64,000 nt of DNA from positions 134,488 to 198,487 of the forward strand of contig JBFWNU010000009.1 in assembly GCA_050250895.1 (NCBI GenBank), written 5' to 3'. Under the pieces are notes generated by a model that ran no database searches, was not told where the DNA came from, and saw only the letters and a program-made list of their open reading frames with translations. The position numbers were made by a program, and so were the translations under genes. Below, piece after piece: positions 12,031 to 23,614 of the stretch; the first letter of the stretch is position 1; every line of letters begins with the position of its first letter. Origin of the DNA: Vulcanimicrobiota bacterium. Its GTDB lineage: Bacteria; Vulcanimicrobiota; Xenobia; Xenobiales; JADMJV01.

Positions 12031-12485
12031 GAGGCCAGGTCCGGATAGAGGATGGCGCGCACCTCATCGGTCAACAGTTCGTCGATGGACAAGAGCTGGG
12101 TTAGCCCCTGGGGGCTGCACTGCAGGCCGCCCAGAAAAGGTGGACCGTCGACTCCGGCAGGCTTGAACTCTGAGGTGTCCTGGCGGGTGGTGCGGGTCAG
12201 ACGTTCGACCATCACGCCGAGCGGCCCGGGCCCGTAGTCGACCAGCAGAATCCGGGTGCTGAGCCACGGCTCGCAAGCCCGCCCCAGGCAGAGTTGACAG
12301 AGATCGATGACGGGCAAGGCCTGACCCAGATAGTCGATAACCCCGGCCACGAACGCGGGAGTCTGGGGGATGGGTCGAGGCGCGATGGCGGGCAACACTC
12401 GCAGGACTCGCGAGGCATCCAGCGCGTAGGCTTCGTCCCCCAGCCCAAACACCAGCAAAAGTCTGCCCCGACGCCAAGCCTCCAT
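12027..12485 (-). CDS. wspB: CheW-like adaptor (WspB-like)
   Basis: IPQTPAFVAGVIDYLG..LPVIDL. Confidence 0.87.
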   Translation of the reverse strand: MEAWRRGRLLLVFGLGDEAYALDASRVLRVLPAIAPRPIPQTPAFVAGVIDYLGQALPVIDLCQLCLGRACEPWLSTRILLVDYGPGPLGVMVERLTRTTRQDTSEFKPAGVDGPPFLGGLQCSPQGLTQLLSIDELLTDEVRAILYPDLAS

Positions 12486-12578
12486 GGTCGATGGTGTTCG
12501 ACGACGACCATCAATTCCTCCAGCCCCGATAGATGCTCCAAAAGAGGATTCCAGTCCGGGTTTGCCAAGACAGCCGGG

Positions 12579-13580
12579 ATGGATCTATCCCGATGCGGAG
12601 TTCTGTCCGGGGGTCGTTTGCTGGCTGTCGATGACAGCGCGTTACACCGCACCAAGTTGACGCGCGAACTCATCGCCCTGGGTCACGAAGTCGAAGGGGC
12701 CGAGAACGGTCGCCAGGCTCTTGATTTGCTGGCTGCCAAGCCGTTCGACCTGATGTTGCTCGATCTGAAAATGCCCGAGATGGACGGCCACGCCGTGCTC
12801 GAAGAGTTGCGCCGACGCGACCTGTTGCGCGAACTGCCGGTGATCGTTATCTCGGGGACCGAAGATGTGGCCGTGGCCGCCCACTGTATCGAGCTTGGCG
12901 CCGAGGACTATCTGACCAAGCCCTTCGACACCATCCTGTTGCGGGCCAGGGTGAACTCGAGCCTGGAAAAAAAACGCCTGCGCGATCTCGAGGCCGAACA
13001 TCTGCGAGAACTGACCGAACTGCGCGGCCATCTCGAAGAGCGCAACGCCGACCTGACCAGGGCCAACGAAATGCTGGCCGAGATGGCTTTCACCGATTCG
13101 CTCACGCGCTTGCCCAACCGGCGCTTCGCCCTGCAGAACCTGGACCAGATGTGGGAACTGTTTCGTCGCCGCCGCCGGCCCTTCTCGTGCGTGTTATGCG
13201 ACGTCGACTATTTCAAGAAGATCAACGATACCTTCGGCCACGACTGGGGCGATCGCGTGCTGATCGGGGTGGCCGAGCGTCTCAAGACGATGGCCCGAGG
13301 GGCTGACATCGTGTGCCGCTTCGGAGGCGAGGAATTTCTGGTGCTCTGCCCCGAGACCGAACTCGAGGGAGCCGTGCAGCTAGCCGAACGCCTGCGCCAG
13401 GGGGTCGAGGCCATCGAATTCAAAGAGCTTGAACGCACCATCACGGCCACTTTCGGAGTCGGCCAGGTGCTGCCCGGCATGGAGCGCGCCGGCCTGGTGC
13501 TCAAAACCGCCGACGACGCCCTCTATCAAGCCAAAGAGGCGGGCCGCAACCGGGTCGGGATCGCGGCGGCCGCCTCGTAG
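12579..13580 (+). CDS. REC-GGDEF diguanylate cyclase (WspR-like)
   Basis: REC (AVDD, DLKMP, KPF), coiled-coil linker, DSLTRLPNRR, RGAD I-site and GGEEF. Confidence 0.92.
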   Translation: MDLSRCGVLSGGRLLAVDDSALHRTKLTRELIALGHEVEGAENGRQALDLLAAKPFDLMLLDLKMPEMDGHAVLEELRRRDLLRELPVIVISGTEDVAVAAHCIELGAEDYLTKPFDTILLRARVNSSLEKKRLRDLEAEHLRELTELRGHLEERNADLTRANEMLAEMAFTDSLTRLPNRRFALQNLDQMWELFRRRRRPFSCVLCDVDYFKKINDTFGHDWGDRVLIGVAERLKTMARGADIVCRFGGEEFLVLCPETELEGAVQLAERLRQGVEAIEFKELERTITATFGVGQVLPGMERAGLVLKTADDALYQAKEAGRNRVGIAAAAS

Positions 13581-13590
13581 GTTTTCTTCT

Positions 13591-13758
13591 TCAACCGCGC
13601 CCGGCGGTTGCCATGTAACCCAACAACAGGCCATACAGGCCAGCCGTCCACGGGTTACACATCAGGCCTCAGGTGCTGCCGACCTGACGCGAGAGAAAAC
13701 TCCAGCCCAGGCCGATCAGAAGGCCAACTCCCATACCGATCAAGGTCTTCGATGTCAT
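13591..13758 (-). CDS. Putative selenoprotein, DUF6132-like small two-TM protein (in-frame UGA at 13669-13671)
   Basis: GGAGG RBS. Read-through gives MTSKTLIGMGVGLLIGLGWSFLSRQVGST-U-GLMCNPWTAGLYGLLLGYMATAGRG, and a second TM helix continues after the UGA. Confidence 0.72.
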
Positions 13759-13783
13759 GGCCACCTCCAAATCTAACATTCTC

Positions 13784-13812
13784 AATATACCAATTTGGAT
13801 GACCAAGATCAA
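13784..13812 (-). promoter_or_regulatory. Sigma70-type promoter overlapped by an FNR/Crp-like box
   Basis: Minus strand TTGATC-N17-TATATT with extended TG. The box TTGATCTTGGTCAT (13799-13812) matches the box at 38056 at 12 of 14 positions. Confidence 0.6.
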
Positions 13813-13880
13813 GCCACGGCCTGCACTGGGTGACCCGCACCTGGCGGGATTCCTGGCCCCTGCGCGGAGAACACCCAGAA

Positions 13881-14315
13881 ATGCGGTGGCCAATCATCCT
13901 CTGTCTACTTTGGATCGTTCAAGGGCCGGTCATGAGTGAGCCCAGCCTGACCGGTCGTTGGGTGACTTCAGACCTGCTCTGGAAGGATCCCGATACTCTC
14001 GAGCCACCGCGCGAACTGGTTCTCGAGCTGAGCGAGGATGGTCAAGCCCGGCTGGACAGCTGCGTCATCTCCCGCGTTTATCGCACCACTGTCGAAGGTT
14101 GCTTCTTGCAAGAGACCCGCAGTGACGAACGCCACCTCGAAGGTCGGTACGAGCTGGTCGATTCGGTGTTGCGTTTCCACTGGACTCGGCCCGACCCTGT
14201 CCTGAGCCCATTTTTCGTTCTCGATGGCAACACTTATTGCTGGCCGACCACCAGCCTGTGGCCGCTCACCGTCGACCTGCCTGCGATGGTCATGGAGTTT
14301 CGTCGGCCGCGTTAG
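13881..14315 (+). CDS. Hypothetical exported protein
   Basis: Signal-peptide-like MRWPIILCLLWIV, followed by a beta-rich LTGRW domain. Confidence 0.55.
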   Translation: MRWPIILCLLWIVQGPVMSEPSLTGRWVTSDLLWKDPDTLEPPRELVLELSEDGQARLDSCVISRVYRTTVEGCFLQETRSDERHLEGRYELVDSVLRFHWTRPDPVLSPFFVLDGNTYCWPTTSLWPLTVDLPAMVMEFRRPR

Positions 14316-23383: not shown

Positions 23384-23614
23384 CTAGAGAGCCTTGATGG
23401 CGTCGCGGACCTCGGACCACTGGGCGTGGCGGCCGATCTTCTTCTTCGAGAAGACGCGTTTTCCGTCGACATCGACCTCGAAGGCTCCGCCGCCGGAGGG
23501 AACGAGGGTCAACCCCTCGATTTCGTCACGAAACTCCCCAATCAACTTCTCTGCCATACTGGCAGCCTGAGGAGTGTAGTTTCACATCAAGCAGAATTCG
23601 ATCTGGATCTTCAT
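23384..23614 (-). CDS. SelW/SelT/SelH (Rdx family) selenoprotein, CxxU
   Basis: Not in the ORF track. GGAGG RBS, then MKIQIEFCLM-U-NYTPQAASMA...LTLVPSGGGAFEVDVDGKRVFSKK.IGRH (76 aa). UGA at 23582-23584. Confidence 0.93.
23544..23581 (-). promoter_or_regulatory. Bacterial SECIS element
   Basis: After UGA: AACU...CUGCCA-GUA-UGGCAG...AGUU. The apical loop starts with GU, 22 nt from the UGA. Confidence 0.8.

Follow-up and report, generated by a model that had tools for sequence, protein, structure and literature searches.

A probable 55-residue membrane selenoprotein of Vulcanimicrobiota related to the DUF6132 family

Introduction

In a 64,000-nt stretch of contig JBFWNU010000009.1 from a Vulcanimicrobiota bacterium (hereafter the window), a short open reading frame (ORF) at 13758..13591 on the minus strand is interrupted by a TGA at codon 30 and continues in frame behind it. 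In all probability this ORF is a real selenoprotein gene, with selenocysteine (Sec) predicted at residue 30 of a 55-residue membrane hairpin, and the product is placed by profile comparisons in a divergent, mostly Sec-containing branch of the DUF6132 (PF19628) superfamily. The TGA is conserved far beyond chance, the 21 codons 3' of it are under coding constraint, and the organism is, judged by its gene content, able to insert Sec. Thioredoxin is the strongest clue to function, being fused or adjacent to the hairpin in a number of relatives, and the favoured reading as a whole, thioredoxin-coupled redox chemistry at Sec30 and Cys34, is given a probability of about 0.6. The family is filed as the Sec branch of a domain of unknown function.

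Anatomy of the gene

The first-pass annotation of this DNA had described an ORF led by a ribosome-binding site, a TGA at codon 30 and an in-frame continuation, all of which can be read directly on the minus strand. The frame stays open for 25 codons behind that TGA (GLMCNPWTAGLYGLLLGYMATAGRG) and is closed by a second TGA (13593..13591). In the read-through product two hydrophobic Gly-rich stretches flank the turn S-R-Q-V-G-S-T-U-G-L-M-C-N-P-W, and standard-code gene calling halts at the first TGA, yielding a 74-aa ORF (13669..13893). The sigma-70-like promoter site, which is a consensus match only, is the sole one within 13450..13950, where 0.2 would be expected in shuffled sequence. The features are as follows.

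13591..13758, minus strand: coding sequence for 55 residues, from ATG 13758..13756 through Sec codon 30 to the stop TGA 13593..13591
13669..13671, minus strand: conserved in-frame TGA, codon 30, taken as a Sec codon and aligned with the conserved Cys of DUF6132
13657..13659, minus strand: codon of Cys34, the likely partner of Sec30 (U-x3-C), invariant in the 19-row alignment
13681..13752, minus strand: helix 1, residues 3-26, hydrophobic and Gly-rich (AlphaFold2, 131-row alignment, predicted local distance difference test (pLDDT) 65)
13603..13653, minus strand: helix 2, residues 36-52, beginning at the conserved N-P-W (AlphaFold2 model; P36 invariant)
13613..13660, minus strand: SECIS-like (Sec insertion sequence) long hairpin in the mRNA, 9 to 56 nt 3' of the UGA, from the minimum free energy (MFE) fold
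13761..13768, minus strand: Shine-Dalgarno sequence GGAGGTGG, 2 nt 5' of the ATG, read from the sequence
13784..13812, minus strand: promoter-like site with -35 TTGATC (13812..13807), a 17-nt spacer and an extended -10 TG-TATATT (13789..13784)
23393..23611, minus strand: SelW-like gene of the Rdx family with one in-frame TGA in C-x-x-U (56 bits)

Conservation of the TGA and of the frame behind it

When 41 related genomes were searched in six frames with stops read through (E<1e-3), every one of the 20 places found, comprising the window and 19 places in 18 other genomes, held exactly one in-frame TGA. The 19 sequences extracted (the window and 18 relatives) all have their TGA in a single column; their ORFs span 50-62 codons with a start codon 24-33 codons 5' of the TGA, and G12, G16, U30, C34, P36 and G43 are invariant in the resulting 19-row alignment. 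Against 401 genomes of the window's phylum, the profile built from these rows matched 36 places in 33 genomes; one TGA was present in 32 of the places and no stop in the remaining 4, and the only one of these four that was read (L066) has Cys in the TGA column. Ten more Sec forms from more distant families carry the TGA in the same column (29 of 29 TGA-bearing loci extracted). Among the Sec forms of this phylum, L065, L067 and L068 place the partner Cys two residues before Sec (C-G-U) and have Lys at position 34.

Some genomes contain two copies of the gene. G015 holds two Sec forms, and G006 and G008 each hold one place with a TGA and one without.

Across 28 distinct sequences, the 21 codons 3' of the TGA differ at rates of 0.418, 0.332 and 0.645 for the first, second and third codon positions. 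In this frame, single-base codon changes are synonymous in 2015 cases and non-synonymous in 945, against 478/2292 and 351/2406 for the other frames; kinship among the genomes makes the counts dependent on one another, yet the pattern is uniform. No in-frame stop occurs in the 28 sequences, compared with 34 and 13 in the other two frames. The concern that homologues might end at the UGA is thus not borne out, as the downstream frame is conserved and constrained as coding sequence, and the Cys/TGA pairs sought among relatives were found in the same column, both in L066 and in a wider set of profile matches in which 113 of 125 have Cys.

These data bear on the simplest alternative, namely that the TGA is an ordinary stop terminating a 29-residue single-helix peptide and that the downstream frame is coincidental or part of something else. 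TGA is a normal stop in this genome and ends this same ORF, and standard gene calling does stop at codon 30. Against this stand at least 21 conserved codons with synonymous bias and no stops, the position of the invariant C34, P36 and G43, all 3' of the TGA, the Cys of those 113 relatives and a complete Sec machinery, so that an ordinary stop is regarded as very improbable.

Selenocysteine machinery of the genome

The presence of selA, selB, selC and selD had been proposed as a check, and selA (517 bits, cut-off 268), selB (383 bits, cut-off 242), selD (358 bits, cut-off 125) and tRNA-Sec (73 bits, cut-off 47) all score above their curated cut-offs. The genes selD, selA and selB adjoin on one strand of contig C1 (698421-702633; genome G000, loci L021, L035 and L036). 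An in-frame TGA is present in selD, and selenophosphate synthetase is therefore itself a selenoprotein here. Sec usage by a SelW gene, which had also been claimed, agrees with the SelW-like gene with an in-frame TGA located in the window; a second SelW-like gene with a TGA lies on contig C4.

RNA structure downstream of the UGA

The 72 nt from the UGA fold as a single long hairpin (-33.4 kcal/mol, z -2.77), in which the Cys-Asn-Pro codons pair with the Gly-Tyr codons, followed by an inner stem and an apical GGCC/GGCC stem with the loop UGUAU (13637..13633, 32-36 nt 3' of the UGA). Averaged over 31 Sec forms, z is -1.97 for the 66 nt from the UGA on (17 of 31 below -1.64) and -0.26 for the 63 nt 5' of it (2 of 31 below that value; Wilcoxon p 7e-6, calculated on sequences that are kin). 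Of the 31, 22 fold a hairpin whose apical loop falls 30-37 nt 3' of the UGA, and 21 of these 22 build the outer stem from that same pairing of codons, whether the genome is GC-rich or AT-rich. The SelW-like and selD genes of this genome also have hairpins, with loops GUA, GUC and others located 17-39 nt 3' of their UGA codons; in the SelW-like gene of the window the GUA loop lies about 25 nt 3' of the UGA. The long hairpin is plausible as a SECIS; no Rfam family matched.

A different element had been put forward in the first-pass annotation, a CCG-UGGA-CGG hairpin enclosed by GGCC/GGCC pairing. The bases are present as described; the pairing lies outside the MFE fold and is not conserved. Across 28 distinct relatives, 47.4% of cells pair, which is no better than controls: 66 of 500 shuffles score as high, slid controls attain as much as 46.4%, and the middle pair is present in 3 of the 28.

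A terminator scan flags 13629-13645 on the minus strand, where the apical stem and a T-rich stretch resemble a terminator though they lie inside the coding sequence.

Membership in the DUF6132 superfamily

A search of 5.8 billion proteins with the 19-row profile returned 8 matches, 7 of which carry PF19628. When the Sec-form profile was compared with those 7 by hhalign, a probability of 99% was obtained (E 5.6e-18) with U on the second, conserved Cys, although the comparison is not fully independent since the rows were picked by the same profile. A filter-free profile search of 1.84 billion representatives gave 126 matches at E<=0.001, of which 125 were aligned. The match left out, P0017, is a protein of 782 residues with repeats that match the turn motif T-C-S-P-W 14 times, and is probably a repetitive or wrong-frame product. 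In the Sec30 column of the 125 matches Cys occurs 113 times, Trp 9 times and Ser, Arg or Gly 3 times. The partner Cys lies 5 residues before this column in 63 (C-x4-C, the classic DUF6132 arrangement), 4 residues after it in 47 (C-x3-C) and at both positions in 1; the window protein has Q25 in the column of the first Cys of C-x4-C, and C34 serves as the likely partner instead. It follows that Sec falls on the one residue kept superfamily-wide and that the second Cys moves.

Scores against the Pfam model, whose gathering threshold is 23.2 bits, form a continuum. The nearest Cys forms P0010, P0012, P0013, P0015, P0016 and P0018 fail the model and P0011 reaches 22.5 bits, while the C-x3-C forms P0019, P0030 and P0051 pass the threshold and thereby bridge the two groups. 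For a natural Cys form, the nearest Atlas clusters were DUF6132 only (score 0.90). A search for related loci with the single protein yielded nothing beyond a chance match to a helix encoded in a Lactobacillus genome. It is very likely that the window protein is a relative of DUF6132. The earlier wording "DUF6132-like" was apt, as profile searches make the connection although the Pfam model misses the protein, and the UGA does sit on the conserved Cys; the DUF6132 consensus quoted in the first-pass annotation is not supported as a test, and tool-derived alignments were used in its place.

The nine Trp entries (P0039, P0047, P0053, P0058, P0082, P0083, P0094, P0096 and P0123) bear on another alternative, in which read-through of the UGA inserts something other than Sec, for instance Trp or Cys by a near-cognate tRNA or through a local change of the code. 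In the DNA of two relatives of P0082 (55-56% identical), from metagenome-assembled genomes (MAGs) of which one is titled Kiritimatiellae and the other Chloroflexota, that column is TGA, so the Trp of P0082 is most likely a gene-calling artefact; it seems that TGA was translated as Trp, in the manner of code 4, by public gene calls. Moreover, TGA is used as a stop elsewhere in these genomes, including at the ends of many of these ORFs, Cys in the forms lacking TGA makes the classic Sec/Cys pair, and the region 3' of the UGA is more structured than that 5' of it. Read-through without Sec is likewise considered very improbable.

All four PF19628 matches above the cut-off in the same two MAGs hold one TGA each; Sec forms are thus found both within DUF6132 proper and in MAGs whose titles name other phyla. 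Within the phylum of the MAG titled Kiritimatiellae the family was found in 43 of 301 genomes, with a TGA in 5 of 45 places, and within that of the MAG titled Chloroflexota PF19628 was found in 1 of 301 genomes, the MAG itself. Among the genomes sampled, Sec forms predominate in the window's phylum and are exceptional elsewhere. A FastTree tree of 153 hairpin sequences, weak as it is built on 55 columns, requires at least 11 Sec/Cys changes by parsimony, which hints at multiple switches.

Predicted structure and topology

AlphaFold2, run with the 131-row alignment, predicts two helices (residues 3-26 and 36-52) joined by a 9-residue turn, in agreement with the two-helix membrane hairpin proposed earlier; U30 lies in the turn and N35-P36 at the start of helix 2, both being conserved features. 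When a fusion protein was modelled from 11 rows, the hairpin came out alike (pLDDT 70-81) and the thioredoxin fold was predicted with confidence, whereas the linker was ill defined. Among solved structures, the 131-row profile detected no relative by sequence; its best match was to the Gly-rich stretch of prion protein (E 0.043).

Segments rich in Lys and Arg tend to be cytoplasmic according to the positive-inside rule. In the Cys forms, the N tail holds 2.6 Lys plus Arg and the first 15 residues of the C tail hold 1.4-2.0, about 4 for the tails together, against 0.4-0.8 for the turn; by this rule, cytoplasmic tails and a turn outside are favoured. For Sec forms of the window's phylum the values for N tail, turn and C tail are 0.41, 0.93 and 0.62, with N tails partly missing from the extracted sequences, and favour neither orientation.

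Thioredoxin fusions, neighbouring genes and the proposed function

Eleven of the 125 matches consist of an N-terminal hairpin followed by a thioredoxin domain, and 9 of the 11 also score above the DUF6132 cut-off. In the alignment of these fusions, the Cys equivalent to Sec30 and the first Cys of thioredoxin are invariant. A homologue search with the fusion P0030 returned plain thioredoxins only and no further fusions. Neighbouring genes were scanned at 33 loci (99 ORFs) of the other phylum, where the hairpin-thioredoxin fusion occurs at 8 loci, a separate thioredoxin gene adjoins at 5 (3 of them also fusions) and a gene for a DsbD-type membrane reductase lies directly upstream at 2. OsmC is a neighbour at 3 of the 33, AhpC at 1, an outer-membrane efflux protein at 6 and an RND pump at 3. 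At single loci, genes for DUF4405, DUF302, OsmC and TusA-DsrE surround the hairpin gene (L246), and a thioredoxin gene (L258) or a DsbD-like gene (L259) stands directly 5' of a Sec form on the same strand.

A second scan covered 30 loci (94 ORFs) of the window's phylum. At L056 the Sec gene stands between a thioredoxin gene, which comes first, and a CsoR-like gene, all three on the same strand. Upstream of the thioredoxin gene, a promoter-like TTGACA, 17 nt, TATACT (1078-1123) overlaps a 23-nt palindrome, TATACTATAC-AGT-GTATAGTATA, which may be an operator bound by the CsoR-like repressor whose gene comes last. At L009 and L010 the Sec gene has as its neighbour a membrane rhodanese bearing a YgaP-type anchor, and neighbours seen once each are cytochrome c, a cytochrome c peroxidase-like gene, DUF302 and DUF4405.

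At L070 (1508-2226, plus strand), two adjacent ORFs lie by a ferredoxin gene, the second with a fragment of a pyridine nucleotide-disulfide oxidoreductase. The pair may be one stop-interrupted gene, possibly for another selenoprotein.

Taken together, the thioredoxin fusions and the recurrent neighbours point to a membrane-bound site of Sec and Cys for redox or soft-metal chemistry, with reductants of the thioredoxin type serving it. The "redox or metal-binding loop" of the first-pass annotation stays at the level of inference, now with the backing of these fusions and neighbours.

Within this frame the protein might mainly handle soft metals, above all Cu(I), at the membrane as a chaperone, a sensor or an accessory of uptake or efflux like MerF/MerE/MerT or CopZ, with thioredoxin merely keeping the ligands reduced. 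CcoG, of the cupric reductase family, is encoded directly after the Sec gene on the same strand at L016 and L019 (456 and 451 bits, cut-off 317), and genes for CsoR-family repressors lie directly downstream at L056 and L064, the best model being the copper sensor RicR, below cut-off. The CsoR-like protein of L056 shows a Cys...His-x3-Cys spacing, which we take to be a mark of copper sensors. The efflux proteins and RND pumps by DUF6132 loci of the other phylum fit this idea, as do the MerT-family selenoproteins on record in the main text of PMC13188914. On the other side, the partner Cys shifts among positions +4, -5 and -2 from the invariant residue, a mobility more typical of redox pairs than of a fixed chelate, and thioredoxin fusions are the commonest association. 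No metal-binding family of Pfam or NCBIfam matches the protein, and each copper-linked neighbour was seen in only 2 genomes of the window's phylum, both CcoG cases being from one genus. A mainly metal-handling role therefore appears rather unlikely compared with thioredoxin-coupled redox chemistry.

In the redox mechanism that is preferred, SelB and tRNA-Sec would decode UGA-30 as Sec, aided by the mRNA hairpin just 3' of it. The product would be a 55-residue helical hairpin in the membrane, with Sec30 in the short inter-helix turn and Cys34 four residues on. Sec30 would act as a reactive nucleophile or ligand, and together with Cys34 it could form a selenenylsulfide or chelate a soft metal. 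The site would then be re-reduced by a thioredoxin-type partner, which is fused or adjacent in many relatives and is encoded elsewhere in this genome. Judged by neighbourhood, copper, organic peroxides and sulfane sulfur are candidate substrates. For the window protein itself, the Sec-Cys redox cycle, the thioredoxin partner and the topology are all proposals.

A number of observations weigh against this reading. Sec insertion itself is inferred from genes and sequences. The only other genome of the window's genus, 98% complete, gave no match in the related-genome or phylum searches. Pfam and NCBIfam scans of the read-through product returned nothing, with no Pfam row at E<=10; the DUF6132 model, run over the whole genome, found 6 weak places and none at this locus at E<=10, and no NCBIfam model matches any of 9 hairpin proteins, Sec or Cys. 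As for the mRNA, 9 of the 31 Sec forms have a proximal hairpin instead, with its loop 17-29 nt after the UGA (GGUC in the two MAGs). RNAalifold on the codon-anchored alignment recovered a 4-pair stem only, the stem being short because registers differ between sequences. Pair counting in a fixed register gave 67.6% of cells paired against 64.9% in shuffles (3 of 500 reach the value; slid controls at most 51.7%), which is modest support because the structure was derived from the same sequences. The confidence of the hairpin model is only pLDDT 65. The window gene is isolated, with a gene for a GGDEF response regulator (12294..13580, plus strand) converging on it and an ORF of no known family diverging from it, and in the window's phylum an adjacent thioredoxin gene occurs at 1 of 30 loci and most neighbours vary. 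Finally, the charge-based topology, if right, would put the turn and the fused thioredoxin on opposite sides of the membrane, which speaks against direct reduction.

Alternatively, the same opposite-sides topology can be taken as the basis for a minimal trans-membrane relay. On this bolder extension the DUF6132 hairpin would be a "two-helix DsbD", probably oligomeric, that passes electrons from cytoplasmic thioredoxin via the single Sec or Cys of the turn to a substrate located within the membrane or on its far side. That substrate could be sulfane sulfur, a lipid or organic peroxide, or Cu(II)/Cu(I) in the context of oxidase assembly or detoxification. The window gene would then represent a widespread, uncatalogued family of membrane selenoproteins of about 55 residues that exploit the higher reactivity of Sec. 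This extension is speculative and is proposed only tentatively.

Significance and comparison with known systems

At about 55 residues, the product would be, to our knowledge, among the shortest selenoproteins. It adds a membrane-embedded family to the bacterial selenoproteome and offers the first functional handle on DUF6132: a reactive Cys or Sec that hardly varies, a partner Cys whose position shifts, and thioredoxin-type proteins that are repeatedly fused to the hairpin or encoded beside it. An annotation problem is exposed as well, in that such genes are cut at the UGA or catalogued with W at the Sec position. The first-pass suggestion of a little-known or new selenoprotein family overlooked by standard annotation is supported; curated models and gene calling both miss the protein. 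A 2026 review of the prokaryotic selenoproteome lists families by Pfam or NCBIfam number (PMC13188914), and its main text, including the family table, contains neither PF19628 nor UxxxC. A full-text search for "DUF6132" had a single match, a paper on nucleotide sugar transporters. No such family appears in the text covered of deep-Sep, the Haft and Gwadz preprint and BSepDB; the BSepDB supplement of 111 families and Haft and Tolstoy (2025) lie outside that coverage and may list it.

Among known systems, MerF, MerE and MerT are likewise small helical membrane proteins resting on paired thiols or a selenol, some of them being selenoproteins according to the main text of PMC13188914. The window protein shows no sequence match to these proteins, and no mer genes were seen among the scanned neighbours. 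TsoA, the "LULAXC motif selenoprotein" (NF045695) listed in the same text, shares the U-x3-C spacing, as judged by its listed name and motif only; its 144-position model, in contrast, matches neither the window protein nor anything else in the genome at E<=10.

The DsbD/CcdA relays and thioredoxin-fused membrane redox proteins resemble the hairpin in tying a membrane Cys pair to a thioredoxin fold. They differ in having six or more helices rather than two, and the DsbD_TM family does not match the hairpin. The fusion P0030 weakly matches the C-terminal part of the model of TsoB, a rhodanese/DsbD-like selenoprotein (27 bits, cut-off 805).

The closest comparison is with DUF6132 itself, a Pfam family of bacterial proteins of about 50-80 residues with no described function. 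The window protein shares with it the two Gly-rich hydrophobic helices, the short turn and the pattern G-x-C ... N-P-[WY] ... G-A-x-x-G. It differs in its U-x3-C arrangement, with the partner 4 residues after the reactive residue instead of 5 before it as in C-x4-C, and in having no proline after the reactive residue. The window's phylum, in turn, differs from the other phylum sampled in using Sec for Cys in 32 of 36 places as against 5 of 45.

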